Source: Minisyncoccota bacterium (GTDB lineage: Bacteria; Patescibacteriota; Minisyncoccia; Phycocordibacterales; UBA6065). From it: a DNA stretch of 64,000 nt. The number at the start of each line of letters is the position of its first letter. Position 1 is the first letter of the stretch. Both the position numbers and the translations under genes were made by a program. The stretch lies in assembly GCA_041661645.1 (NCBI GenBank), contig JBAZUA010000001.1, forward strand, positions 192,189 through 256,188. The letters are read 5' to 3'. Under the pieces are notes generated by a model. It did no database searches, was not told the DNA's origin, and saw only the letters and a list, made by a program, of their open reading frames with translations. Below are positions 1 to 50,003 of this stretch, in pieces.

Positions 1-201
1 ACCTGCGTACGTCTTCCATTCGACACCATTCTGAGACCCCTCATTTTGAGAGGCCTTACCTATGGACGACTGTTGGTTTTGCGCTACGGGTTCAGCAGAA
101 TACCTATCGCTATAAATGTAGATCCCCTCGCCCACGACCAAGATTGCCAGAATGCCTATTATCAGGAACGGGACAGTGAGACCCCTTGTGAATTGTTTCA
201 T
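1..201 (-). CDS. N-terminal part of a membrane-anchored or secreted hypothetical protein; partial, continues beyond the window start
   Basis: ATG at 201 on the minus strand (MKQFTRGLTVPFLIIGILAILVVGEG...) gives a hydrophobic N-terminal anchor. The reading frame stays open to position 1. A TATAAT box sits 8 nt upstream of the ATG. Confidence 0.35.
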   Translation of the reverse strand, partial: MKQFTRGLTVPFLIIGILAILVVGEGIYIYSDRYSAEPVAQNQQSSIGKASQNEGSQNGVEWKTYAG

Positions 202-235
202 GTTTCTAAATTATATGACGGGACAATAACTCACC

Positions 236-727
236 CTAAAGAGTAATCCCGAGGAGTTTAAGGACAAAGGCCGCGAACGGATCGGCGGTAGGGCCATATA
301 CAATCACCCCGCCGAGAAGGCCCGTCAGAGATATCGAGACGAGGGCCACAAGTGCCATGACTTTCGGGAACCATCCCTCGGCGAGGATCTTTTTGAGAAG
401 GACGATGATTGCCTTGTGATATTTCACCGACAGATAGCTCGAGACCTCCCCCGCCAAGAGCGCGACATAGAGCCATGTGGATATTGCCGCGAATGTCGAA
501 TGCGCCTCCACGAGCTGACTATTAGCTCGCATGAGCTCTTCTGCTGTTTCACCCGTGGTCAGCGCGACAAAGGCCCCCAACACACCAAGGAAAAGCAGAA
601 TGCGCTCCGCCTGCTTCCATGCCACGCCCGGAAACCACTTTTGAAGCGGCAAGACCCTGATGATCGAGTATATGAAAAGCAGCGCTATTGGAAAATGAAC
701 GAAAATCGGATGAAGATTATATGTCAT
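236..727 (-). CDS. Integral membrane protein (DUF2231-like, four predicted TM helices)
   Basis: 163 aa ORF with hydrophobic segments (HPIFVHFPIALLF..., LFLGVLGAFVALTTGE...). It resembles the DUF2231 membrane protein family. No enzymatic motifs. Confidence 0.5.
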   Translation of the reverse strand: MTYNLHPIFVHFPIALLFIYSIIRVLPLQKWFPGVAWKQAERILLFLGVLGAFVALTTGETAEELMRANSQLVEAHSTFAAISTWLYVALLAGEVSSYLSVKYHKAIIVLLKKILAEGWFPKVMALVALVSISLTGLLGGVIVYGPTADPFAAFVLKLLGITL

Positions 728-750
728 CCGATAAGTATAGCAGATGGGAG

Positions 751-1611
751 TTAGCCTTTGTTTCCCGCAGGTCTCACCATCTCGACATAGGGCAGTTTGT
801 CTTTAAAGAACCGCGTTGGTTTATCTGTCTTGACGAACCCGTACTTAGAATAGAAACCGAATGCCTCTTTGTTAAACGAGAAAACATCCAGGTAACTGGG
901 CTTGGTTTCGTCTGACCAGGTCAGGAACTCTTTCATGAGACTTCCTCCAATCCCCTTTCCTTTGGCCTCATCAAGAATGTAAATACCCTCAAGAATGTTG
1001 GACGTGCCACTTTTGGAGCAATGTAGAAAGCCCACGATCTTGCCGTCATCATTTTTCACGACTCGGTACAGGGTTTTGTCGGGATTTTCCAAAGCTTCGA
1101 TGATGGTATTTTTTCTATATTCGGTATCGGTGGCAAGATAGCCCACCATGTCATCAACCGCTTTTTCCGTTAGGCCAGATTCGGGACCGACATAAGATTC
1201 CTTCCACGACCGTACGTGCATGGGGCCTATAGCAAGCTCGTCGCCCACTCGGGGAAACTCTATTGTGAATGTCTGCATCTTAGATTTGGTCACTTCGAGC
1301 TTCATTTTCAAGACATCGACAATTTCTATAAATTCTGTTCGCTTCACATCCCATCCAAAGTGTCCCCTGTCAGTATATTCATGATACTCAGTCCCCAAAG
1401 ATCTGTGAACATGTCTGGGTTCATCTATTGGGATATAAGGATCGTCCGTCGACGCGAACTGGACTATCCATTTCTGATTATCGCGGATCTTGTCCCATTG
1501 CCAGGGCTTATCGTAATAATGACTCTGCTTCTCGGCATCATAGCCAAGATCGGTATAGCAGGCGCCGATTAGAATTGACCCCAAAATCTTATGGCTTTCC
1601 GCATAGCGCAT
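751..1611 (-). CDS. GNAT family N-acetyltransferase fused in frame to the C-terminal part of an RBBP9/YdeN-type alpha/beta serine hydrolase
   Basis: The N-terminal half (GHSSGALAAM...DRGHFGWD) matches the YdeN/RBBP9 hydrolase fold. The C-terminal half (ILDEAKGKGIGGSLMKEFL...FGFYSKYGF) has the GNAT acetyl-CoA binding motif Q/RxxGxG/A. The hydrolase N-terminus lies upstream but is separated by an in-frame TAG (see pseudogene feature). Confidence 0.6.
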   Translation of the reverse strand: MRYAESHKILGSILIGACYTDLGYDAEKQSHYYDKPWQWDKIRDNQKWIVQFASTDDPYIPIDEPRHVHRSLGTEYHEYTDRGHFGWDVKRTEFIEIVDVLKMKLEVTKSKMQTFTIEFPRVGDELAIGPMHVRSWKESYVGPESGLTEKAVDDMVGYLATDTEYRKNTIIEALENPDKTLYRVVKNDDGKIVGFLHCSKSGTSNILEGIYILDEAKGKGIGGSLMKEFLTWSDETKPSYLDVFSFNKEAFGFYSKYGFVKTDKPTRFFKDKLPYVEMVRPAGNKG

Positions 1612-1689
1612 GGCGGCAAGGGCCCCGGAAGAATGACCTATGAGAACAGTCTCCTCGTCAGCGCCAAGCGACTCAATAAAAGGCAGCTA

Positions 1690-1833
1690 GAACTCCATGC
1701 GTGCCAACGCAGGGTCTGGATATTGTCTATTGATTACCTTAATCCCAAGCTTGGATAATTCACGCTCAAGATATGGATAATAAATATCGTTTGGCGTCGC
1801 ACCTCCGTTACCTGGTATGAGTATGACTTTCAT
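1690..1833 (-). pseudogene. 5' fragment of the YdeN/RBBP9-like hydrolase gene, separated from the 751..1611 ORF by an in-frame TAG at 1687-1689
   Basis: ATG at 1833 gives MKVILIPGNGGATPNDIYYPYLERELSKLGIKVINRQYPDPALARMEF, then TAG. The same frame continues LPFIESLGADEETVLIGHSSGA.... This is the contiguous N-terminus of the hydrolase fold. Confidence 0.45.
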
Positions 1834-1882
1834 TTTAAAAACCTTCTTGGTTACTGAATCTTAGTATTTCCACCCCAACACA

Positions 1883-2305
1883 TCAATAATCAAAAGGCGA
1901 GAATCCCGCGTCCACGAAGTTCTGGAGCATGTAGAAGAGCGGCTTGGGCAGTCTGTCCCATGCGCACCATCGCCACTCGTAACATTTATCCGGCTCGGCG
2001 ACCGTCGGGTGGCCCGAGTCGTAGTCTGCGACGACGAACAGGGTCACATAGTGCTTTTCGTAGGGCAGGTTTTTGTCATTCGTGATGGGGCCCATGCGAA
2101 GCCTTTTGATCGTGACCGATGCCTCCTCGAGGGTCTCGCGGTGGGCGCAGTCGAACACGTCTTCCCTGAACTCTAGATGCCCGCCGGGAAGGGACCACAT
2201 GCCGTCGCCATGCTCGCCCTTTCTCTTGCCGATCAGGATCTGCTTGTATTTGACGACGAAGACGGCGACTCCGACTCCGGGACGAAAGGATTTGGGTAAT
2301 TCCAT
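1883..2305 (-). CDS. NUDIX hydrolase
   Basis: NUDIX box GGHLEFREDVFDCAHRETLEEASV (Gx5Ex7REUxEExGU). The start was chosen at the internal ATG (MELPKSF...). The ORF extends to 2374 with an alternative upstream start. Confidence 0.7.
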   Translation of the reverse strand: MELPKSFRPGVGVAVFVVKYKQILIGKRKGEHGDGMWSLPGGHLEFREDVFDCAHRETLEEASVTIKRLRMGPITNDKNLPYEKHYVTLFVVADYDSGHPTVAEPDKCYEWRWCAWDRLPKPLFYMLQNFVDAGFSPFDY

Positions 2306-2377
2306 GGGGGAAGTATAACAAATCTCTCTGTCGGCAGCCTGGAATGATGCCGGAACCCGTTTAGAGGCCCACAAACG

Positions 2378-3013
2378 TCAATCTTGGACAATGAGGCCAA
2401 AAATCGAAGAGAGATAGAGTGCCTGTTCGATGCTGACGGTCAGGCCCTGGATCGAATCCTTGTGTAGGGAAATGTTCTCAATATTCGAACCCTTCAGGCT
2501 TACCCCTGTCAGCTTGGCCTGCGAGAACTGCGAATCTTTCAAATTGCAGTTCTGGAACAAGACATCTTTCAACTCCGCTCCTTGGAAGTCGGATTCTCCC
2601 AAGTCACAGTTTATAAATGCGACACTTTTCATTTTGGCGAACCTCAGAGACAGGCCGTTGCCCTTGGACTCCCTTATAACCACGTCCCTCATATTCGCCC
2701 GGGTAAGATAAAGGCCCTGCAAGCGGGTATTCTCAATTTCCACTCTTTCGAGAAAGATATTGTCGGCTTTCACGCCCGTGAAGTTGCTCTTCTTGATTAT
2801 CGAGTCGGTAATCCTCATCTCTGAAATCGTGGAAGACTGCAGCGAAAGCTTGTCTGCGGCGACTTCGTTGAAATCTAATTCATCAAGCTTCTTGCCTTCC
2901 AAGGACGCCTCACTGAGCGACGCGGATTCGACGCGGATTGCTAGTGATTCGCTATCGATAGTAGCCTCGGTATCTGTGACCGATTTATTCAATACCGGCT
3001 TGCGAATTTCCAT
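2378..3013 (-). CDS. Pentapeptide-repeat protein
   Basis: Tandem A(D/N)LxX-type pentapeptide repeats run through most of the ORF (SLRFAKMKSVAFINCDLGESDFQGAELKDVLFQNCNLKDSQFSQAKLTGVSLKGSNIENISL). The ATG is at 3013 and a TTG at 3022 is also possible. Confidence 0.6.
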   Translation of the reverse strand: MEIRKPVLNKSVTDTEATIDSESLAIRVESASLSEASLEGKKLDELDFNEVAADKLSLQSSTISEMRITDSIIKKSNFTGVKADNIFLERVEIENTRLQGLYLTRANMRDVVIRESKGNGLSLRFAKMKSVAFINCDLGESDFQGAELKDVLFQNCNLKDSQFSQAKLTGVSLKGSNIENISLHKDSIQGLTVSIEQALYLSSIFGLIVQD

Positions 3014-3022
3014 ATTGGTCAA

Positions 3023-3640
3023 TTAATGATTGTATTGCTCAGATTTAAAGACATGGGCTTTGTCCGCGGAAGAATCTTCCGACATGATAAGCAGGTCGCT
3101 GTTTCCAAAATGGAATTGAGTAAGCACCCTCCCCCAGTCTAGATGATAGTATTCAGCGTAAATCATCTTCCCTATATCGCCGTGGGAGACCAGCAAGATA
3201 TTTCCGGATTTATGTTTCGAAAAGATTTTGTCTAACAACACTCGCCCTCGTTTCATGAGATCCGGAAAAGTCTCGGCCCCTTCAGGATCTAGGAAGTAGG
3301 TAATTATCTCGGCTTTGATGATATTTGGCGCGCACAACTTCTCAATATCAGATATATTTTTTCCTGTCATCACGCCAAAATCTCTTTCGATCAAAAGTGG
3401 TTCTACTGTCGGTGTGGGTGAGCTTGTTGATTCTGAGATGATTCTTGCGGTCTCAAAAGCCCTGATAAGGGGGGAACTATAAACTGTGTCGAACACTATT
3501 TCTGCAGCCTTTATTTTGTTTGCCACTTCCTGAGCCTGTTCAAGACCTTTTTGAGTCAGCGCCTCGTCGCGATGGCCGTTAAGGATTCCTTCTACATTAT
3601 CCTTATTTTGTCCGTGCCGTACAAGATAAATTTTGAGCAT
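3023..3640 (-). CDS. Histidine phosphatase family protein (phosphoglycerate mutase-like)
   Basis: N-terminal RHG catalytic motif (YLVRHGQNKDN) and a later SHG motif (LLVSHGDIGK). Confidence 0.7.
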   Translation of the reverse strand: MLKIYLVRHGQNKDNVEGILNGHRDEALTQKGLEQAQEVANKIKAAEIVFDTVYSSPLIRAFETARIISESTSSPTPTVEPLLIERDFGVMTGKNISDIEKLCAPNIIKAEIITYFLDPEGAETFPDLMKRGRVLLDKIFSKHKSGNILLVSHGDIGKMIYAEYYHLDWGRVLTQFHFGNSDLLIMSEDSSADKAHVFKSEQYNH

Positions 3641-3782
3641 AATAGCAATTTAGGATATGGGTATATCATACCATTCCACCGAATGACTTGAGGCCACCTC
3701 AACTTGGTTGCCGTATAGTACGACGCCGGAACCTTCATTGGGCGGTCAGACAATCACGCAAATTGACATTTTCCTATATATA

Positions 3783-4292
3783 ATGCAATGTATTAAGATT
3801 CGTCGACGTTCGACGGATTCAAACAACAAACAGAAAGGAATTGGTTTGAAAAGACTTTATCTACCGCAAGTTCTTTGGCACAAATGGTTCGTCTTGCTGG
3901 CCGGTCTTAGGGTCAAGGGAATCCCCTTTTGGAGACTCGTGGTTCACGACTGGACCAAGTTTCTCCCGGTCGAATACGGGGTATACCGTCGGAAGTGTAC
4001 CGGGGGCAGATATTTTAAAGATGAGTGGGAGAAAGCGAAGTGGCACCACTATCTCTCCAACCCCCACCACTATCAGTATTGGATCAAGGATGGGGTTCCG
4101 GATCCGATGCCGGACGTGTTCGTCAGGGAGATGGTGGCCGATTGGATGGCCGCCGGTCGGAGCTATGAAGGGAGCTGGGAAATTCAGGGCTGGCTGGCTG
4201 AAAATTACAAGAAATTCAACCTACACCCGTCGACGCTGGAAAGACTCAAGGTCATCCTGTCGTCTCAGGGACTCGCCTGGCCAGAAGGCTGA
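3783..4292 (+). CDS. Hypothetical protein (Trp/His-rich; conserved segment WHHYLSNPHHYQYW)
   Basis: ORF with an AT-rich upstream region. I recognise no domain. It lies in a low-GC island. The start was chosen at ATG 3783. Confidence 0.4.
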   Translation: MQCIKIRRRSTDSNNKQKGIGLKRLYLPQVLWHKWFVLLAGLRVKGIPFWRLVVHDWTKFLPVEYGVYRRKCTGGRYFKDEWEKAKWHHYLSNPHHYQYWIKDGVPDPMPDVFVREMVADWMAAGRSYEGSWEIQGWLAENYKKFNLHPSTLERLKVILSSQGLAWPEG

Positions 4293-4321
4293 ATCCTCCG
4301 AATCATAAAAGAAACCTCAAG

Positions 4322-4356
4322 GCCTGTGACATAGCAATATGTTGCAGGCTTTTTTT
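4322..4356 (+). terminator. Intrinsic terminator after the 3783..4292 gene
   Basis: Hairpin gcctg-tgacatagcaatatgttg-caggc followed by ttttttt. Confidence 0.5.
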
Positions 4357-4457
4357 GTTGGTTGGCCTCCTCAGGGTAGAACCGCGCTCGTCTAAACCGC
4401 TTTATGGTGGTTTAGACGTTCTTTATCGTATTAAAACAACCCATCTTGAGCGATGTG

Positions 4458-4994
4458 TTATCTATCCACAGGAAACTCATCCTTGATCTCTGTGGCTATC
4501 TTCATTTCTAAGGCCTCAGTAGCACTGAGTACTTTTCCTTCAACTAGAATATTTCTTGTATCACCTTCTGGCTTTTGAAGTTCCGAGGCTATTATTTCAA
4601 AATATCTTTTGTCTAGCTCTTGTAACAGAGAGGTTGTTTCTTTGTGAACAGAAATCACCTGGGCTTGCTGGGGTCCACTATATGTTGGTTCATGTAATCT
4701 CACTCTACAATCTTTTACTAATGTGCGTTTAGTTCCACTTAAGAAAAGCACAAGTGCCGCAGAATCCACTTGCCCGAACCCTACTGTATTAAGCCTGATT
4801 TTTGATGATTTGATGAAATCATAGAAGCGTATAGCAGAATCAATATCACCACCCGTCGACGATATATAAAGAGTTACTTGGACATTAGGATTTGCGTGAA
4901 ATTGTTTGAATATCTCTATAATGGCAGTTCCGATGGTGCTTTCATTCACAGCGCAAGGTAACATGTACCAATATTTCATGTCTTTTGGAGGCAT
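4458..4994 (-). CDS. ClpP/crotonase-fold serine peptidase-like protein
   Basis: YISSTGGDIDSAIRFYDFIK resembles the ClpP-family segment INSPGG-V-AGLAIYDT. The gene is low-GC relative to the core genome. Confidence 0.45.
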   Translation of the reverse strand: MPPKDMKYWYMLPCAVNESTIGTAIIEIFKQFHANPNVQVTLYISSTGGDIDSAIRFYDFIKSSKIRLNTVGFGQVDSAALVLFLSGTKRTLVKDCRVRLHEPTYSGPQQAQVISVHKETTSLLQELDKRYFEIIASELQKPEGDTRNILVEGKVLSATEALEMKIATEIKDEFPVDR

Positions 4995-5201
4995 AGTTTT
5001 TTGTTGTAGATTAATAATTTAAGGAAGATAAACACACGCTTCTCATAAGCAGAATTATAACAAAAATTAATCAAAAGGTTGATTTTTGTCTGACCCATCA
5101 TTTTGAGAATTCTTGAGTGATATAAACTAAACTCAACTTGGTTGGCCGACCCGAGTTGGAACCATTAGCGGTCAAGACCTGCAATGTCGGTTTGTTACAT
5201 T

Positions 5202-5639
5202 TTATTGTACCAAATCGACGGGACTTGAGCGTTTGGCTCTTAAGTAGTTTTCCATCAGTTCAATGTCTTTATGATCCTTTGGACGATTGTATTCCGTCTT
5301 AAATTTAATCAAATCATCAAGACAAATAAAAGGTATACCGCTAAAGTATTCCGCCTTGCTCAACAATTCTTGGAGAGTTGGATTAAAATTTCTACAATTA
5401 ACATCTGTATATAGTTCGATGTCCCCTTGTTTGAGATATATTTCTCCAGGCTTGTCTGGATATGTGTAATGCATGGTTTTCCATCCTTTATTCTTGCACC
5501 CTTCGAATATTTCTGGGGAGACAACAATATCAATATCATGAATTTCTTTGAGTCCATGCATCGCCATGATTCCACTACCCACCACAACGTACTGGTCCTT
5601 GGTTAGTTTTAGATTTTTGACTTGATTAATTATATCCAT
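5202..5639 (-). CDS. Lnu/LinA-like minimal nucleotidyltransferase (Pol-beta superfamily)
   Basis: GSGIMAMHGLKEIHDIDIVV provides the GS...DxD NTase motif, with an HxDIDI core as in LinA. The C-terminal IPFICLDDLIKFK resembles LinA IPCISKEAQLLFH. It is low-GC. The ORF-track N-terminal extension overlaps the tRNA and was trimmed to MDIINQ. Confidence 0.45.
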   Translation of the reverse strand: MDIINQVKNLKLTKDQYVVVGSGIMAMHGLKEIHDIDIVVSPEIFEGCKNKGWKTMHYTYPDKPGEIYLKQGDIELYTDVNCRNFNPTLQELLSKAEYFSGIPFICLDDLIKFKTEYNRPKDHKDIELMENYLRAKRSSPVDLVQ

Positions 5640-5671
5640 ATATTTTAACGCTTCTCGAGCGATGCTCTTGT

Positions 5672-5746
5672 TGGTTGCCAGGCAGGGATTCGAACCCCGA
5701 TTACACGCCTTCAAAGGGCGGCGTCCGACCATTAGACGACCCGGCA
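5672..5746 (-). tRNA. tRNA-Gln (anticodon UUG), CCA encoded
   Basis: Manually folded cloverleaf. Acceptor TGCCGGG/CCTGGCA, anticodon loop CTTTGAA, T-loop TTCGAAT. A 3' CCA is present. Confidence 0.75.
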
Positions 5747-5769
5747 ATATAGACCGACACCCGCTAAAC

Positions 5770-6801
5770 CTACTTCCCCTCCCCCGCCACGTCAAGAACG
5801 ACGAGCTCGAGGGGAAGCTCCTTTATCGGCGACACGCCCACTTGGTCGAAAGCGCCGAGCAGGGCGCGAAGAAGCTTTGAGTCGACGACTGCATTCTTGT
5901 TTCCAACGACGGCTTTGGCAAAAGATCGATCCTCCTCGCTCGCCTGGCTGCGGGCATCGGACTCCACGTCCATCTTCTCGAGGAGGGCGAGACGGGCAAG
6001 AGACACGACGAGCTCAAGGAAGAGCTTGGGGTCGAATGACCTGCGCTTCACCTCGGCGAGGGCGGCGAAGGCCTTGGGAGCGTCGTGCGAGGCTAAGGCC
6101 AGCACGAAGGCGCGCACGAATTCTGATTTTGGCGCGCCGGTCGCCTCCTCGACATGGGCGCGGGTGATCTTCTTCCCCTCCAGGCCGGCAATGCCGCGTT
6201 CCAATGCGCCATGCGCGTCGCGGAATGATCCCTCGCTCACCAGGGCAAGAAGCTCAGCGGCGGCAGGCTCGATCGAGAAACCTTCCTTCTGTGCCACGTC
6301 CACTATCAAATCCTTCAAGGTATCAAGGGTCGGCCTGCGGAACTCGAACACCTGACAGCGAGAGACGATGGTGTCGGGCAGCTTGTGCGACTCGGTGGTG
6401 GCAAGTATGAAGACGACATGCTTCGGCGGCTCTTCCAAAGTCTTCAAAAGTGCGTTGAAAGCCTCTTTCGTGAGCATGTGAACCTCATCGATGATATAGA
6501 CCTTGTACTTGGACTCGAACGGCAAGGTGGAGACCGCATCGCGAAGGGCACGCACGTCGTCGATGCCGCGATTAGATGCCGCGTCTATCTCGTAGGTGTC
6601 ATTGGCACTCGTGCCGATGGCTCGGGCGAAAATTCGAGCGATGGATGTCTTGCCTATGCCACGGGATCCAGCGAACAGATATGCGTGGGCGATGTTGCCG
6701 CTTTCCGCCACGGCCGAGAGGGCCTTGACCACGCTGCCCTGGCCGATGATCTCGGCAAAGGTCTGGGGTCGATATTTCCGGTACAGCACCTGATGTGTCA
6801 T
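5770..6801 (-). CDS. dnaX: DNA polymerase III subunit gamma/tau (short form)
   Basis: YRPQTFAEIIGQ..., Walker A GSRGIGKTS, and LDTL...IIDEVHML clamp-loader motifs. Confidence 0.85.
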   Translation of the reverse strand: MTHQVLYRKYRPQTFAEIIGQGSVVKALSAVAESGNIAHAYLFAGSRGIGKTSIARIFARAIGTSANDTYEIDAASNRGIDDVRALRDAVSTLPFESKYKVYIIDEVHMLTKEAFNALLKTLEEPPKHVVFILATTESHKLPDTIVSRCQVFEFRRPTLDTLKDLIVDVAQKEGFSIEPAAAELLALVSEGSFRDAHGALERGIAGLEGKKITRAHVEEATGAPKSEFVRAFVLALASHDAPKAFAALAEVKRRSFDPKLFLELVVSLARLALLEKMDVESDARSQASEEDRSFAKAVVGNKNAVVDSKLLRALLGAFDQVGVSPIKELPLELVVLDVAGEGK

Positions 6802-14647: not shown

Positions 14648-14687
14648 CCACGAAAAACACCTCAATCGATTGAGGTGTTTTTCGTGG
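14648..14687. terminator. Perfect 20+20 palindrome CCACGAAAAACACCTCAATC|GATTGAGGTGTTTTTCGTGG (copy 2 of the repeated hairpin element); bidirectional terminator after topA
   Basis: Seen directly. Shares its core with the 6828 and 47648 copies. Confidence 0.6.
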
Positions 14688-23983: not shown

Positions 23984-26707
23984 TTATATAATCTTCTCCT
24001 TCTCCGCCTCGACGCTCTCAGCCAAGGTCTGCAAGGGAATGACCTTCCTGCCCTTCTTCACGTCGAAGGTGAATTCGACGGCCGAGCCGGTCGCACCCGC
24101 CTTGACGCCAACCTGTATCGATCCGCCCTTGCCCACGGCCTGCGAGATCATGAATCCCGCGACGGGTGTGAGTATCTTCTCCTGTATGAGTCGCCTGAGC
24201 GGTCGCGCGCCGTACTGCGGGTTGTAGCCTTCCTTCGAGAGGTATTCGAGCACCGCGGGCGCGATGTCGAGCCTGATCTCCTTCTCGGCAAGCCGCTTGA
24301 CCACCTGCTCCACCTGAATGCCGACGATGTTCCTGATAGACTCGGGCGACAGCACGTCAAAGAGTATGATCGAGTCGAGTCGATTGAGGAACTCGGGCCT
24401 GAAATAGTCCTTGAGGCTCTCCATGACCTTCGCCTTCACGTCCTCGTACTTGTTCTTGGTGCCGGTGTCGGACGCAAAGCCGAGCTTCTCCATCTTGTCG
24501 ATGAACTGGGACCCGATGTTCGAGGTGAGGATGATGACAGTGTTCTTGAAGTTTACGACACGGCCCTTGGTGTCGGTCAGGCGGCCGTTGTCGAGCACCT
24601 GCAGGAGTATGTTGAAGACCTCGGGATGGGCCTTCTCGACCTCATCGAAGAGGATGACGGAATAGGGCTTGTGTCGGACCATCTCGGTGAGGGATCCTCC
24701 CTCCTCATAGCCGACATAGCCCGGAGGCGCGCCGATGAGCTTTGAGGTCGAGTGCTTGTCCATAAACTCGGACATGTCGATGCGAATGAGTGACTTCTCG
24801 TCGTTGAACATGAACTCGGCGAGGGCCTTGGTGAGCTCGGTCTTTCCGACGCCCGTCGGTCCGAGGAACAGGAACGAGCCGATAGGCCTGTTCGGGTCCG
24901 CGATGCCGGCACGGGCGCGACGAATGGTATCGGCGATCTTCTTGACCGCCTCGAGCTGTCCGACGACGCGTCGATCAAGCTCGCTTTCCATGCGCATGAG
25001 CTTGCGAGCCTCCTCCTCGAGCATCTTGGATACTGGAATGCCCGTCCATTTGGAAACGACGTCGGCAATGTCCTGCTCGGTGATCTCCTCCTTCAGGATG
25101 CGACGCGAGGTCTGCATCTTCTTGAGCTTCTTTATCTTGACGTCGAGGTCCTTCTCGAGCATCGGTATCTTGCCGTAGCGGATTTCGGCGGCCTTGGCCA
25201 AATCGGCCTTGAGCTCGGCCGCCTCGGCGTCGATACGGAGCCTCTCGAGATCCTTCTTGTGGGACTTTATACCAGTGAGGAGCTCCTTCTCGGTCTTCCA
25301 CTTGAGCTCGACCTCCTGGGTCTGCTCCTTGAGGTCGGCAATCTCCTTCTCGATGGTCTTTATGCGAAGCTTCGGGGTCTTGGGGTCCTTGCTCACCTCG
25401 GCCTCCTTCCTGAGGGACACGAGCTCGATCTCGAGGCGCATGACCTTGCGATGGGTCTCCTCGAGAAGCGGCGGTTTGGATTCAAGAGAGATCTTCAATG
25501 CCGAAGAGGCCTCGTCGATGAGGTCCACCACCTTGTCGGGCAGGAACCTGTCGCTTATGTAACGGGACGAGAGGTTCACGGCCGCGATGATGGCGTCGTC
25601 CGTTATGCGGACGCCGTGATAGAGCTCGTACTTCTCCTTGAGGCCTCGCAGTATGGCGATGGCATCCTCGACGGTAGGCTCGACGACCTGCACGGGCTGA
25701 AAGCGTCGGGTAAGCGCCGGGTCTTTCTCTATATGCTTCTGATACTCCTTGAGGGTGGTCGCGCCGATGGCACGCAGTTCCCCACGAGCCAATGCAGGCT
25801 TGAGCATGTTCGATGCGTCCATCGATCCCTCGGACGCGCCGGCGCCGACGATGGTATGAATCTCGTCTATGAAAAGTATCACCTTTCCGTCCGACCTCTC
25901 GATCTCCTTCATGATGTTCTTGAGGCGCTCCTCGAACTCGCCGCGGTACTTGGTGCCCGCGACCAGAAGGCCGAGGTCGAGCGAGACCAGTTCTTTGTCC
26001 TTGAGGGACTCGGGAACGTCGCCCTGGGCCATGCGCAGGGCGAGGCCCTCGACGATCGCGGTCTTGCCCACTCCCGCCTCTCCAATGAGCATCGGGTTGT
26101 TCTTGGTTCGGCGCGAGAGTATCTGGATGATGCGGTTTATCTCGCTGTCGCGGCCGATGACGGGGTCAAGGCGATTCTCGAGGGCGAGCTTGGTCAGGCT
26201 GCGGGTGTACTTGAGGAGGGCGCGAGGCTTCTTGGCGGGAGAGGGCTCGTTGCTCTTGCTCGTGCGGAGTTCCTCGAGCACGCGAAGCACGCCTGCCTTG
26301 TCTATCTTGAAGCGGGTGAGCAAATCGAGGGCCGGGCTCTGCATCTCGAGGAGGGCGATGAAGAGATGCTCGGTAGAGATGAACTCATCGCCGAGGGACG
26401 CCGCGACCTTAGACGAGTTCTCGAGGGCCTGGGCAAGCTCGGGCGTGAGATATATCTGGTACGACTGGGAGAGCGTCGCCCCCTGTTGGGTGCCCTCGAG
26501 GGACTCCGCGAGAGTGTCGCTGAGAAGAAGGGTGTCGACCTCGAGCTTCTCGAGAATGGCCGAAACCATGCTCTCCTCCTGAATGATGAGGGATGAGAGG
26601 AGGTGAAGGGGGTTGACGTGATTCTGCCCCCGCTCGATGGCGAGCTCGTGGGCCCGCCTGATGGCCTCCTTGGCCTTGGTGGTGAAATGATTAAGGGGTG
26701 GTGTCAT
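23984..26707 (-). CDS. clpB: ATP-dependent chaperone ClpB
   Basis: Clp N domain, two AAA+ modules (GEAGVGKTA and GPTGVGKTE Walker A motifs), and a long middle coiled-coil domain typical of ClpB. 907 aa. Confidence 0.9.
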
Positions 26708-27467
26708 ATTGTTTGATTATATTCGAAGGAATAAAGGCTTTGTCTGAAGGACTGTCATTCTGTATGCCCACGACCTCACCCAGAAGATTAGCAAGAACTG
26801 CCGAAGAATCAAAGTCCTCGCCCAAAGGACTCGTTTTGAGGGTCATACCGTCGCCGGCACCGCGAATCGACGAGACTATTCCCGTGGCGGCGACGGGATC
26901 AGCAACTCCGCCCACGGCCACCACCGCCTGGCCCAGTTTCACCGCACCTGAGTCGGCGAAGGCAACCGCCGAATAGGCTCGGGCGTCCAGGGGGTTGGCG
27001 CTCTGATCCGCCTGGAACAGGGATAGTCCGCGAGCGGCGTCTCGCGACACGAAGACGAGAGAGACGACGTTGCCGCCAGAGAGTTTGGCGACCAGAGGCG
27101 CCTCTCCGAGAACGCCGGAGGAGGTGACGATCCTTCCCGTCGGAGAGACGATGACGCCGAGGCCGACAAAGGCCCCGGGGACGCCCTGGTTTGAGACGAA
27201 TATTCTGACGATCGATCTCGACACCCTCGCAATAGCATCCGTGACAGCCTGATCGTCCTTAACAATGACAGTCTCACGGGCGGCGGAGGTGGCGATGGTG
27301 GGAGACACCTTCTCTATGGTGCGCTCGACGACTCTGCTTATAGTCTGGGTGGCAGTGGGCTGACCCTGATCAGTGAGAGAGACCGTGACGATGCTTGAGG
27401 CAATGGACGAGACAAAGCTGACGAGGAGGGCGAGCAAGACTATCTGTTGTCTGGTGAGATGCTCCAT
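26691..27467 (-). CDS. Membrane-anchored trypsin-like (HtrA/S1C-like) protein, probably non-catalytic
   Basis: N-terminal TM helix, then a chymotrypsin-fold-like region. No GNSGGPL-type serine motif is evident. Overlaps the clpB start by 17 nt. Confidence 0.45.
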   Translation of the reverse strand: MEHLTRQQIVLLALLVSFVSSIASSIVTVSLTDQGQPTATQTISRVVERTIEKVSPTIATSAARETVIVKDDQAVTDAIARVSRSIVRIFVSNQGVPGAFVGLGVIVSPTGRIVTSSGVLGEAPLVAKLSGGNVVSLVFVSRDAARGLSLFQADQSANPLDARAYSAVAFADSGAVKLGQAVVAVGGVADPVAATGIVSSIRGAGDGMTLKTSPLGEDFDSSAVLANLLGEVVGIQNDSPSDKAFIPSNIIKQYDTTP

Positions 27468-27587
27468 AAAATAATCATACTACAAATCACCTCCCCTGGC
27501 ATGCGTTTCAGGAGAACGGGCTCTTGGCTTGCTATCCGAGGCCCTCACTCTCGCACCGCCGTGCTCCGAGAGTCTCCTTCACGCATG

Positions 27588-28772
27588 CTACCGAAGCTCC
27601 TTGAGTGCGGAGATTATTTTATGTATGTCGGAGAGGGTCGCGTCGGGGGCAAGGGAGAATCTGAGGGTGTTTCTCGCCCTCCAGTCAGGACCACCAAGTG
27701 CGGAGACGACATATGACGACTCCTCACCCTTAAGGCAAGAGCTTTTTGTGGAGCAGGCGATGCCCGCATGATCGAGCTTGAGCACGGCGAATTCCGGATC
27801 GGAAAGTCCTGACAATGATAGGTTCACATTGTTCGGAAGCCTTTTTTCGAATGAGCCGTTTAACATGATGTCTGTAAAGGCCTTTCCGAGCGCCGCGACG
27901 AATACGTCTCGGATAGAGGACGCCTGCCTCACCCGCACTTCCCTGCCCTCGTGGGCAATCCTGAGGGCCTCGGTGAATCCAGCCGCGAGCTCTACGCTCT
28001 CGGTGGTCGGCCTCATGCCACGCTCCTGCCCGCCGCCGAGCATCGTCGGCCTGCATGGCGTGCCATGACGCAGGGCAAGAAGCCCAATGCCCTTTGGGCC
28101 CTGCATCTTGTGGGCGTCGAGAGTCAGGGCATCGACGCGAAGCCCCTCGAGATCGCAGGCAAGCCAGAGCGGTGCCTGTGAGGCGTCTGAATGGAATACC
28201 GGAAACAACGCGCCATCCTCACCCACCTTGGCCGCTCGAATCTTCCTGATGCCCGCGCCTATTTTCGAAATAGGCTGAATGGTTCCAATCTCATTGTTGG
28301 CAAGCATGCAGGTCACGAGAACGGTGTTCGGGCGAATGGCTGCTAGCATTTCATCCGCACTGACGATGCCCACCTCATTTGTCCCCACGTAAGTGACAGA
28401 AGCGCCCCTTCGCTCGAGATCACGCAGTGTCTCGAGTATTGACGAGTGTTCGATAGCCGTACTGACGATATGAATGTCGGTCAGCGGCATGCCTTCGGCC
28501 ACACAAGCCTCAACCACTCCACGCACGATCATGTTATTCGCCTCGGTTCCCCCGCTCGTGAAATACATCTCATCCGACTTAGCCGAGAGGATCATGGCAC
28601 ACGCGACGCGAGATGCGCTCAACGCGTTCTTCGCGACGACGCCCTCGGCATGTATCGCCGATGGGTTCGCCCAGAAGGCACGGGCCTTCGACATCGCCTT
28701 GGCGACGCGAGGATGCAGCGGCGTGGTGGCCGCCCAGTCTGCGTATATGCGTCTTTTCCTGAATCCAAACAT
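27588..28772 (-). CDS. Cysteine desulfurase (class V aminotransferase, IscS/NifS-like)
   Basis: PLP-lysine region TLDAHKMQGPKGIGLL. Catalytic Cys loop SSCLKGEES. ADWAATTP N-terminal motif. Confidence 0.85.
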   Translation of the reverse strand: MFGFRKRRIYADWAATTPLHPRVAKAMSKARAFWANPSAIHAEGVVAKNALSASRVACAMILSAKSDEMYFTSGGTEANNMIVRGVVEACVAEGMPLTDIHIVSTAIEHSSILETLRDLERRGASVTYVGTNEVGIVSADEMLAAIRPNTVLVTCMLANNEIGTIQPISKIGAGIRKIRAAKVGEDGALFPVFHSDASQAPLWLACDLEGLRVDALTLDAHKMQGPKGIGLLALRHGTPCRPTMLGGGQERGMRPTTESVELAAGFTEALRIAHEGREVRVRQASSIRDVFVAALGKAFTDIMLNGSFEKRLPNNVNLSLSGLSDPEFAVLKLDHAGIACSTKSSCLKGEESSYVVSALGGPDWRARNTLRFSLAPDATLSDIHKIISALKELR

Positions 28773-47613: not shown

Positions 47614-47647
47614 TCAGGACTCAATAGAACGGCTCACGTAAGCCACA

Positions 47648-47680
47648 TAAAACACCTCAACCCATTGAGGTGTTTTACTT
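47648..47680 (+). terminator. Terminator hairpin AAAACACCTCAA-CCCA-TTGAGGTGTTTT plus acttt (copy 3 of the repeated element)
   Basis: Seen directly, after rpsA. Confidence 0.55.
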
Positions 47681-47699
47681 TGGCCCGGACAGGTTGACT

Positions 47700-48177
47700 A
47701 GAGACCTAGAAAAGGTACCATTTTGAATGGACGCAGATGCTCGAAATCCCGACACATCGCCAAGTGATCATGCCCGAAGGATGATTGCGAAGGAGCAAGA
47801 GGCGACTAAGGTTGCACGGTTTGGTTGACCACACCAGGGTCCCCACCCGGCCGATGTCCCTCTAAGATGGAGGGGCAGAATGTCTTGATCTGAGGGGCTC
47901 GTTGTGACCTCACATGAAATAGGTACACGGCCAGCTTGGTATCAAGCGATTCGGAGGATCCGTCCGGCGAAGAGCACGAGGAAAAGCACTCAGAGGGTGG
48001 GAACAGCGTCGATTGACATCCGCTGTTCCCACCCTAGCCCTTTCCACCCAACATCATTTTGCTATACTTATGGCCTGCGACAAGCCTGAGGACAGACACT
48101 CAACCAAACTCGCAGCAGGCAGGCGACGCCTTCGGTCGCCTGCCCACCACTTTAGTTCTTTCTGACTCTCAAGAGAA
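47700..48177. ncRNA. Candidate structured non-coding region (unassigned), ending at a bidirectional terminator
   Basis: About 480 nt with no convincing ORF. Strong hairpins: GGGAACAGCG-ucgauugacauc-CGCUGUUCCC, and GGCAGGCGAC-gccuucg-GUCGCCUGCC with a UUCG loop. A CCCUC-uaagaug-GAGGG hairpin is also present. Confidence 0.25.
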
Positions 48178-48212
48178 AAGCGCCCCATCGAATGGGGCGC
48201 TTTTGATGTCAG
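48178..48212. terminator. Bidirectional intrinsic terminator (gcgcccc-atcgaat-ggggcgc flanked by A- and T-runs)
   Basis: Seen directly. Confidence 0.55.
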
Positions 48213-48225
48213 GAAGCTGAGACAG

Positions 48226-48459
48226 TCACCTCCCGCCAAAGCCTTCGGAGAACAGCGCGCTGATATCGATCAGGACAAGGGTGCACAGAACGCCGAAGGC
48301 GATGATCAGAAAGAAGAGGACAATGAGACATCTGCCGAGAACGTGTCGCCAGAGCTTTTCCTTGTCGCACAGGTGCCTTCCCCAGCCGATAAACCAGGTG
48401 ATGACGGCCGCCACGATAAGGGAGACCAGGACCGGATAGATGATTTCTATGATTCTCAC
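48226..48459 (-). CDS. Small membrane protein (two TM, 77 aa)
   Basis: Hydrophobic ORF ending just before the terminator. Confidence 0.35.
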   Translation of the reverse strand: MRIIEIIYPVLVSLIVAAVITWFIGWGRHLCDKEKLWRHVLGRCLIVLFFLIIAFGVLCTLVLIDISALFSEGFGGR

Positions 48460-48551
48460 GAGTAAGCTTTCGTTGATAGGTTAAGAACGCCACCGTAAAG
48501 CCTACGCCTCCCGCGGATGAAGTCAATCGCCCTTGTCGCCAGAGGGACGAC

Positions 48552-49205
48552 CTACTTGTTGAACTCCGCGTTGTACTCGCTCATCGCTCGCTCGGGAGAG
48601 TCTGAAACCGCGAGCTCGAGGCAATCAACCACCTTCTTTATGACCTTCTTAAGATCGTCCGCCTCCTTCGGCTTAAAGTCTGCGACGATGAAGTTCTCGA
48701 CTATGGAATCGTGATCGAGCTTCTTTGGCTGGCCATTCGCCTTTGGCGGGACGATACCAATCCTGATGCGGAAGAAGGCCTGGGTGCCCACCGCCTTGAT
48801 GACGGACTGAACGCCCTTGTGCCCGCCCGCGCTCTTGTCCCAGGACATCTTGGCCTTACCCAGGGGTATGTCGAGGTCGTCATGAACGACGATGAGTTCC
48901 GGAAAGGCCTTTATGGACTTGCCTGTCGAATCCTTCATCTTCTTTGGGCCCTTCACCAGCTTTGCCGCCGAGAGGCCTGACTTATTCATGAAGGTCTCGG
49001 GAAGCACGAGGGTCGCCTTCCCCTTCTCCACCTTGCCAATCGATATGAGCGACTGGGACTTCTTGTCAGCCTTGAAGTCGTCAAACTTCATCTTCTGGGC
49101 GAATTTCATCACAGCCTCGCGTCCCGCATTGTGCCGCGTACCCTCGTATTCCGCCCCCGGGTTTCCTAGTCCAATGATTATCATAATGATGACAGTATAA
49201 GACAT
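48552..49205 (-). CDS. pth: Peptidyl-tRNA hydrolase
   Basis: IIGLGNPGAEYEGTRHNAGREAV matches the N-terminal motif xGLGNPGxxYxxTRHNxG. Start ATG 49205 or 49184. Confidence 0.8.
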   Translation of the reverse strand: MSYTVIIMIIIGLGNPGAEYEGTRHNAGREAVMKFAQKMKFDDFKADKKSQSLISIGKVEKGKATLVLPETFMNKSGLSAAKLVKGPKKMKDSTGKSIKAFPELIVVHDDLDIPLGKAKMSWDKSAGGHKGVQSVIKAVGTQAFFRIRIGIVPPKANGQPKKLDHDSIVENFIVADFKPKEADDLKKVIKKVVDCLELAVSDSPERAMSEYNAEFNK

Positions 49206-49341
49206 TCGATGTTCTGGCACAAAGGCTCCCGACGGAGACTCTCGGAGCACGACGGTGCGAGGGTGAGAGTGAGGGCTTTAGCTTCCAAGCGAAAAGCCCG
49301 GCCTCCAGAGGGAGCCTTTGTGCCAGAACATACGAATGCCC
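49200..49341. repeat. Imperfect inverted repeat (arms 49201-49230 and 49310-49341, 28 bp with one bulge) flanking a 76-nt spacer
   Basis: The reverse complement of arm 1 is gggagcctttgtgccagaacatcgaatgtc. Arm 2 is gggagcctttgtgccagaacatacgaatgcc. The spacer folds on its own (GGGCUUU...AAAGCCC). Arm 1 contains the pth start codon. Confidence 0.6.
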
Positions 49342-49397
49342 ATTGTGTCAACACTATGATTCGGGCTACACTTCACACACCAATAATCAAGCACCAA

Positions 49398-50003
49398 ATG
49401 GACACATCAAACGATGCGGGCAAAGAAAAGAAGGAGACCCTCTTAAAGGAGGTCCTCAAATACGCCCTCTTCGCCCTGATCATCGTCCTACCCGTGCGCA
49501 CGTGGATAGCCCAGCCATTCGTCGTGAACGGCGGATCCATGGACGATACCTTCAAGGACGGGCAATACCTCATCGTCGACGAGATATCCTACCGCTTCAA
49601 GTCCCCCGAACGAGGCGACGTGCTTATCTTCAGGTACCCCGAGGACACCTCAAAATACTTCATAAAGAGACTTATCGGCCTCCCCGGAGAAACGGTCATC
49701 GTCAAGAACGACTCGGTAACCATAGAAAACGCCGAGTACCCTGCGGGCATCGCGTTAAACGAGCCCTACACGGGATCAAGAACGCTCGGCAACACGAGCG
49801 TGACACTCGGCACGGACGAATACTTCGTCATGGGAGACAACAGGATAGTCAGCCTCGACTCGCGGGCCTGGGGAGCGCTGCCGAAAAGCGACATCATCGG
49901 GCGGCCTGTGCTCAGGCTTCTCCCCTTCGGCAAGATGGGGACGTTTCCGGGGGCAGTGGCGAGTTCGAGCATGATAGGAGGGACAACAGCACCAGCACAG
50001 TAA
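49398..50003 (+). CDS. lepB: Signal peptidase I
   Basis: Catalytic Ser box GGSMDDTF. KRLIGLPGETV. GDNRIVSLDSRAWG (Lys box region). Confidence 0.8.
   Translation: MDTSNDAGKEKKETLLKEVLKYALFALIIVLPVRTWIAQPFVVNGGSMDDTFKDGQYLIVDEISYRFKSPERGDVLIFRYPEDTSKYFIKRLIGLPGETVIVKNDSVTIENAEYPAGIALNEPYTGSRTLGNTSVTLGTDEYFVMGDNRIVSLDSRAWGALPKSDIIGRPVLRLLPFGKMGTFPGAVASSSMIGGTTAPAQ

Follow-up and report, generated by a model that had tools for sequence, protein, structure and literature searches.

A Y-capped hairpin between lepB and pth in a Minisyncoccota genome: one copy of a candidate family of dispersed intergenic repeats

In a Minisyncoccota bacterium (assembly GCA_041661645.1) the divergent genes pth and lepB are separated by a long inverted repeat, and the question that this locus raises is what kind of element the repeat belongs to and whether it controls its neighbours. 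The repeat lies in a stretch of 64,000 nucleotides of contig JBAZUA010000001.1 (positions 192,189 to 256,188), which was analysed as a whole and is called the window below; all coordinates without a locus name refer to it. The pth gene is on the minus strand (Pfam Pept_tRNA_hydro, 1e-47) and lepB on the plus strand (Peptidase_S26). The closest proteins are annotated as Candidatus Paceibacterota/Parcubacteria, a group of the Candidate Phyla Radiation (CPR). An earlier sequence-only reading of the locus had proposed that the repeat hides the pth start codon in a long mRNA stem, or alternatively that it is an insertion resembling a miniature inverted-repeat transposable element (MITE) or a palindromic insertion. 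This interpretation is partly supported, its main idea of a buried start codon being the part that is not. We favour, with a probability of about 0.45, the reading that the inverted repeat forms the stem closing one copy of a repeat that is non-coding, dispersed and specific to a Paceibacterota clade, similar in kind to the REP, ERIC and Correia repeats and named here the Y-capped hairpin.

The inverted repeat and its conserved cap

Direct reading of the region gives a 22-bp perfect inverted repeat, 49209-49230 (ATGTTCTGGCACAAAGGCTCCC) with 49310-49331, followed by a single unpaired base, A49332, and six further pairs, 49203-49208 with 49333-49338. The 22 plus 6 pairs and one bulged base described earlier are thus correct. 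On the minus strand, arm 2 (49310-49341) forms the 5' strand and arm 1 (49201-49230) the 3' strand of the closing stem, P1, and a weaker palindrome with 58-nt arms, 74% complementary, extends beyond both over 49180-49360. The window contains two exact matches to the 20-nt arm, one on each strand (0.01 expected), and among the inverted repeats of the 64 kb no other has both a perfect stem of 14 bp or more and a spacer above 25 nt. The folding energy, whose computation had been proposed with the sequence-only reading, is -98.2 kcal/mol (z = -10.7) on the plus strand and -102.3 kcal/mol (z = -12.3) on the minus strand for the 181-nt segment 49180-49360, and none of 200 shuffles matched it. The inverted repeat is real and far beyond chance. 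Since both strands fold equally well, folding energy gives no strand assignment. The peptide GAFVPEH, noticed earlier at the beginning of both divergent open reading frames (ORFs), is indeed present in both, as a trivial consequence of translating a repeat and its reverse complement.

The spacer between the arms also folds, as had been seen from its GGGCTTT...AAAGCCC segment, and its fold is shared. In the window and in five related loci (L011, L016, L003, L018 and L032) a long perfect stem leads into a three-way junction, whose core of 68-75 nt consists of a short closing helix and two hairpins. Hairpin A has about 10 bp and the loop UGGA, UUGGA, GUGGA, UGGU or UGCU; hairpin B has 4-5 bp and the loop CGUC. 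The window core occupies 49233-49307 on the minus strand, with the closing stem UGGAG/CUCCG. Hairpin A (GGGCUUU..GCU-UGGA-AGC..AAAGCCC), the earlier spacer hairpin, is formed on the same strand by 49273-49299, and hairpin B (ACUCUC..GCAC-CGUC-GUGC..GAGAGU) by 49238-49270, with the CGUC loop conserved in the family.

A covariance model was built from these six cores and rebuilt from eight. The six seed copies score by construction, among them window copy 1 (49233-49307, minus strand) at 62-63 bits (63.4 bits with E 4e-20, and 61.9 bits). Three copies were outside the model that first detected them, namely a second copy in the window (27510-27578, plus strand, 51-70 bits, E 1e-15 to 8e-21) and copies in L030 (1651-1716, minus strand, 44-66 bits) and L040 (527-594, minus strand, 68 bits). 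In total, nine distinct copies were detected with E-values of 1e-13 to 1e-26, two in the window and the others in L011, L032, L003/L028, L016/L029, L018, L030 and L040. Scans of the 64-kb window without filters, and of 217 kb of related loci with the default ones, gave no further match. In the eight-sequence alignment, 86% of the cells are paired, compared with 64% after shuffling and 39-56% when the partners are slid, and 16 of the 20 pairs change on both sides; these figures come from few related sequences in an alignment fitted to the model structure. The closing helix, hairpin A, hairpin B with the CGUC-type loop and the covariation that define the Y-capped hairpin are all found at 49233-49307.

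The two window cores share 74% identity. Copy 1 reaches 55-56% against the copies that its closest Pth relatives, L016 and L003, carry at this locus, and copy 2 reaches 64% against the L040 copy. The closer similarity within the genome suggests homogenisation or turnover inside it, as in repeat families. At 76% identity to each window copy, the L011 core shows the subtype to be old as well.

The stem below the junction behaves differently from the core. It is copy-specific, 7-30 bp long and always perfectly Watson-Crick paired, and its sequence is unrelated among the copies, including the two in the window. About 200 bp of long perfect stem in seven copies (18-30 bp each) contain no G.U pairs and no mismatches. 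The core helices have some mismatches and, on the model strand, 11 G.U against 3 A.C pairs, a count that is small, phylogenetically non-independent and taken from a model-fitted alignment.

At the lepB-pth locus the outer half of arm 2 (approximately 49341-49325) falls within the block TTGACgCAATgG-N6-GCgTGtt, which aligns without gaps in 17 loci with or without a hairpin. Because this half of arm 2 is pre-existing conserved sequence of the promoter region, arm 1 is probably a later inverted copy of arm 2. An imperfect outer palindrome in L006 likewise reaches into the promoter spacer. Template switching is known to homogenise and expand the arms of inverted repeats and can invert their spacer (PMC8604942, PMC13100816, PMC7202029), and we infer that switching between hairpin arms made the long stem perfect and extended it. 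With spacers inverted in this way, the core would be expected in both orientations with respect to its neighbours, as is seen. The same process at quasipalindromes explains stems that are lineage-specific, perfect on both strands and built from neighbouring conserved sequence (PMC8604942, PMC13100816, PMC7202029); however, it is a mutational process and not an element family, and leaves the conserved junction core unexplained.

The lepB-pth spacer, the start of pth and other genomic contexts

For comparison, pth loci were gathered from 11 species-representative genomes, 13 metagenome contigs and further assemblies; at this locus L003 and L028 have the same sequence state, as do L016 and L029. 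Read on the pth strand, the spacer consists of AAGTATAG (the complement of the lepB -10 box), about 18 nt, TTGACRCAATRG-N6-GCRTG, a variable segment, TATACT, 6-10 nt and ATG. The variable segment is absent or short in L007, L018, L019, L005, L022 and L023, with no hairpin upstream of pth in the first four of these. L015 and L031 have a plain long hairpin instead, with stems of 21 and 14 bp respectively, and the window, L016/L029, L032 and L006 a long perfect stem around 54-94 nt. In L003/L028 and L011 the same kind of hairpin comes right after the lepB-side block, and another gene separates the block from pth. Only the last few bases of an L032-type stem persist in L004, and this state is therefore read as a deletion. 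The comparison with relatives that the sequence-only reading had suggested thus returned the same hairpin architecture at the same spot in some genomes and its absence in others. In a BLAST search of the element against the relatives the stems were dissimilar and only the flanks matched, apart from an interior match to L011 (81%), which was the lead to the element family.

The hairpin of L006 (2811-2948) occupies the same lepB-pth spot, with a 22-bp perfect stem around a 94-nt multi-hairpin interior, and is preceded by TTGACA-N18-TGTAAT. Its interior was not detected by the covariance model, and it could be a diverged family member or an unrelated occupant of the same site.

Two ATG codons are candidates for the pth start. 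The JGI gene call uses ATG 49205-49203, giving 217 aa with the N-terminus MSYTVII, and this codon, also assumed in the sequence-only reading, lies inside the outer 6-bp part of the stem. However, nearly all close Pth homologues have 210 aa and the N-terminus MIIIGLGNPG, as does the NCBI model of the identical protein, and the Pfam domain begins at residue 9 of the 217-aa reading. On these grounds the start is placed at ATG 49184-49182, and the upstream codon is most probably wrong.

The promoter sequence points the same way. The -10-like box TATACT (49194-49199, minus strand) is 9 nt before the start at 49182-49184 and falls between the two ATGs, so that ATG 49205 is upstream of it. A TAnnnT hexamer is found 5-11 nt before the pth ATG in 23 of 26 related loci (TATACT in 18) and is kept irrespective of the upstream neighbour, be it lepB, a terminator or another gene. 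As this box is conserved just before the ATG, we infer that the pth mRNA is leaderless or nearly so, would start downstream of arm 1 and would contain neither arm. With the element outside a leaderless mRNA, the start codon cannot be sequestered by it.

Farther upstream of pth, the conserved block TTGACACAATGG (49340-49351, minus strand) is -35-like for pth and overlaps the lepB -35 region on the other strand; lepB has the -10-like box TACACT at 49367-49372 on the plus strand (TATACT in relatives) and its start codon at 49398. With the element in place, the ancestral TTGACA and the pth -10 box are about 150 bp apart, and a weak TTGTGC in arm 1 lies 17 nt from TATACT. A promoter scan of the lepB-pth locus in the window found no canonical promoter. 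In L019, TTGACA stands 17 nt from TACACT, a candidate -10 box 26 nt before the ATG.

The second window copy (27499-27588, plus strand, core 27510-27578) has a closing stem of only 8 bp (GCATGCGT/ACGCATGC). It lies between an aminotransferase-like gene (27588-28772, minus strand) and a serine protease gene (26691-27467, minus strand) and is antisense to both. The protease gene has a leaderless-type start. Its -10-like box TATGAT and the TATACT of pth stand 6-10 nt before the start codons (27465-27479 and 49182-49199), which suggests, from these motifs, widespread leaderless transcription in this lineage.

At the same aminotransferase-protease site, L040 (64% protease identity) has a copy in the same orientation and with homologous flanks. 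There is no copy in L039 (83% protease identity), where the stop codon TAG runs into the protease -10 box. Relative to L039, the extra 108 nt of the window are bounded by GTAG on both sides, one of which includes the stop codon of the neighbouring gene; this fits insertion with target duplication or deletion between short repeats. As the element is found in L040, the more distant of the two relatives, the simpler explanation is that L039 lost it.

The other copies fall into varied contexts. Those of the window (copy 1), L032, L003/L028 and L016/L029 are in the lepB-pth spacer. The L011 copy adjoins the lepB promoter block and is separated from pth by another gene, and the L018 copy directly follows the pth stop codon and has terminator-like A- and T-tracts. 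In L030 the copy lies outside an IS200-like Y1-transposase element, about 30 nt from its end hairpin. This IS200-like element (L030 1040-1620), about 300 nt downstream of pth, contains a 142-aa Y1_Tnp gene and matching GGAAACCCCG..CGGGGAGGA hairpins. A link between the Y-capped hairpin and the L030 transposase was rejected, as the hairpin is outside the insertion-sequence end hairpins and there is no Y1 gene in the window.

Repeat family, small RNA or cis-acting DNA

According to the repeat reading, the family would occupy intergenic DNA in either orientation, long-lived at some loci and deleted at others, and would fold when the DNA is single-stranded or transcribed through. Replication template switching between the hairpin arms, a process at the DNA level, would keep the stem perfect and lengthen it; at lepB-pth, part of the conserved lepB-proximal promoter block (arm 2) would have been copied in inverted orientation to give arm 1. 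At this locus the element would have the shared upstream promoter block on one side and the -10 box of pth on the other, lying upstream of the core promoters of both genes, and its local effect, if any, would be on promoter geometry.

Several known families offer precedents. ERIC (IRU) elements of Enterobacteriaceae are imperfect intergenic palindromes of about 100-150 bp, with low to moderate copy number and no associated transposase; they are present or absent at orthologous loci, form a long hairpin when transcribed and have a consensus along the whole palindrome. The Y-capped hairpin resembles them in size, intergenic position, presence or absence at orthologous loci and hairpin formation. 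However, it is conserved only in its tip of 68-75 nt, its stem being unrelated between copies even within one genome, and it has another host phylum and no sequence similarity to ERIC.

Correia/NEMIS elements and other MITEs are, like it, small non-coding hairpins adjacent to promoters, can supply or displace promoter hexamers and are long enough for RNase III if transcribed. In contrast to the conserved terminal inverted repeats and target-site duplications of MITEs (TA for Correia), the stems of copy 1 (ATGTTCTGGCACAAAGGCTCCC), copy 2 (GCATGCGT), L011, L032, L018 and L003 are mutually unrelated and there is no consistent duplication. In L018, AATAAATAA is found on both sides of the copy, but in an A-rich terminator context, and no target-site duplication was seen at window copy 1, L016 or L003. 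Because the terminal repeats are not conserved and the duplications are ambiguous, the element is not a typical MITE. Of the insertion proposed earlier, what stands is a dispersed family, present in some relatives and absent from others; conserved terminal repeats and clear duplications are missing.

REPs and REPINs are likewise extragenic palindromes found in either orientation, and the GTAG...GTAG of copy 2 and the IS200-like element about 30 nt from the L030 copy recall them. REPs differ in size and layout, being 20-40 nt long, with conserved sequence, tens to hundreds of copies and a RAYT gene. No RAYT/Y1 gene was found in the 64-kb window, and GTAG is present at copy 2 only.

Known RNA classes gave no match. 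At gathering score, Rfam 15, whose families include SRP, 6S and Y RNAs, riboswitches and ribozymes, finds only tRNAs in the window. Around copy 1 at E<=10 the hits are at chance level, the best overlapping one being mir-934 (19.8 bits, threshold 80), and there is nothing at E<=10 around copy 2. ARAGORN reports no tRNA- or tmRNA-like genes in 49100-49450. An intrinsic terminator at copy 1 was rejected, as no T-run follows either arm on either strand (the L032 and L018 copies have one). The attC sites of integrons have the consensus 5'-RYYYAAC ... GTTRRRY-3' at the hairpin base. This candidate was rejected too, because the order here, 5'-GTTCTGG...CCAGAAC-3' on both strands, is the reverse of attC and the motifs are absent in the other copies; hammerhead and purine-riboswitch-like readings fail on motif order or missing core motifs. 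A few full-text searches of the literature on CPR MITEs, non-coding RNAs, leaderless transcription and maps of transcription start sites turned up nothing relevant. The Y-capped hairpin, with no Rfam 15 model match, is previously undescribed.

A number of observations weigh against the repeat reading. The 64-kb window holds only two copies, and the search for further arms proposed as a MITE test found the 20-mer at the two arms in the window and nowhere among the GTDB representative genomes, a collection that evidently does not include this genome; the core 23-mer has no match in IMG/VR. The element has no linked transposase, and the window gave no match to the Y1_Tnp protein of L030 in tblastn (best E 1.9). 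Its stems do not serve as conserved terminal repeats, and evidence for target-site duplication is ambiguous, with GTAG...GTAG flanking copy 2 and nothing comparable at copy 1. Copies are found at the same locus across deep divergence (L040, with 64% protease identity, and five genomes at lepB-pth); such retention, with the loops conserved and the helices covarying, resembles a functional RNA more than it does junk. In L032 and L011 a good promoter, T(T/G)GACA-N18-TGTAAT, is just upstream of the stem, and a U-tract follows the stem in L032 and L018. Finally, the transcription start of pth is placed from motif conservation.

The main rival, which we consider possible but doubtful, takes up several of these points. 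It holds that the copies are a family of small-RNA genes, read here from the minus strand. A duplex of 20-30 bp would join the 5' and 3' ends, and the junction with its UGGA and CGUC loops would be a protein-binding or loop-loop module. In L032, TGGACA-N18-TGTAAT stops 8 nt short of the stem, and UUUUUU follows the stem immediately. The same promoter is found in L011 and in L006, where the long hairpin has the interior missed by the model; the L018 stem is followed by a U-tract, and copy 2 is preceded on the model strand, at a distance of about 20 nt, by the promoter-like TTGTCT-17-AATAAT. Covarying helices and conserved loops also speak for an RNA, as does the retention of copies at the same loci where flanking proteins are only 64-80% identical, and the excess of G.U over A.C pairs, 11 to 3 on the model strand, favours one strand, although this count has the limits given above. 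However, no recognisable promoter is found upstream of window copy 1, L016 or L003, where the stem begins 4 nt after TTGACACAAT, and these three copies also have no recognisable terminator, copy 1 having no U-tract. The palindrome overruns any plausible transcript end into promoter-spacer sequence, and about 200 bp of long stem without G.U pairs is unusual for selection at the RNA level. The equal folding energy of the two strands and the loss of the element in several lineages (L039, L004, L007 and others) also count against an RNA. At a comparably tentative level, the family might be either a new class of structured small RNAs of the CPR clade, some with promoter and terminator, or a mobile repeat that builds its stem from its flanks by template switching.

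A second rival, which we regard as improbable, assigns the function to the DNA itself: a cruciform extruded in negatively supercoiled DNA would tune or insulate the leaderless promoters next to it (those of pth, lepB and the protease gene). Each window copy ends upstream of the -10 box of a leaderless-type gene, at a distance of about 10-20 bp, so that the stem base lies at the -35 position. Stems are perfect and fold equally on both strands, and in L015 and L031 hairpin-only versions, with stems of 21 and 14 bp, occupy the lepB-pth spot. On the other hand, the L011, L018 and L030 copies are away from any such promoter, and conserved loops and core G.U pairs are unneeded for a cruciform. The special case in which extrusion restores the -35/-10 spacing was rejected, as the spacers left after removal of the hairpin are inconsistent, about 10 nt in the window and in L015 and about 27 nt in L016. 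The element may act as a cruciform or as part of the promoter architecture, but need not.

The translational control originally proposed, in which a pth mRNA started upstream carries both arms and hides ATG 49205, is very unlikely: in L004, L006 and L032 a promoter is far enough upstream to allow read-through of the hairpin, but the homologues, the Pfam domain and the conserved -10 box place the start codon and the presumed transcription start downstream of arm 1, and the same element is found at loci unrelated to pth and in both orientations. The sequence-only reading had also named the contrary outcome, a chance palindrome outside the transcript and absent elsewhere; transcription of pth does appear to start downstream of the repeat, but the element recurs at other loci.

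Other features of the region and significance

Several other features were noted. A perfect 40-bp palindrome at 14648-14687 (CCACGAAAAACACCTCAATCGATTGAGGTGTTTTTCGTGG), with similar hairpins in L015 (4683-4714) and L016 (4724-4755), probably represents a conserved terminator acting in both directions, its perfect stem being unusually long. L019 contains two oppositely oriented copies (3656-3775 and 4315-4438) of a different long-hairpin repeat, about 120 nt in length, with perfect stems of 16-22 bp, A/T-tract flanks and compensated differences between the two, one copy being right after the pth stop codon; it looks like a separate terminator-like family of that genome. The ORF-poor region 47614-48551 between the S1 gene and pth has no significant Rfam match, and only a 77-aa membrane ORF (48226-48459, minus strand) is kept in L015 and L016. 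Its counterpart varies, being occupied by the IS200-like Y1_Tnp element in L030 and a 159-aa ORF in L029. Inside the pth coding sequence, 49064-49116 (minus strand) weakly matches sR7, an archaeal C/D-box sRNA (22.5 bits, gathering score 37, E 0.007), almost certainly by chance. Window positions 1-6000 have a G+C content of 0.44-0.48, compared with 0.55-0.61 elsewhere in the window, and may be foreign or recently acquired DNA.

The genomes of CPR bacteria (Patescibacteria) are small and poorly understood, and their non-coding elements and promoters are almost uncharted. The present analysis adds a structured element family, supported by covariation and lying outside Rfam 15. It is also a clear natural example of a palindrome in which the structured tip is conserved and the stem is kept perfect and apparently extended from adjacent DNA, the opposite of the usual MITE layout with conserved ends and a variable middle. 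The comparative evidence further suggests that pth and at least one more gene are leaderless from a -10 box (TATACT in pth), and corrects the start codon given by one annotation pipeline. If the Y-capped hairpin is a transcribed RNA, it would represent a new RNA class in an uncultivated phylum.

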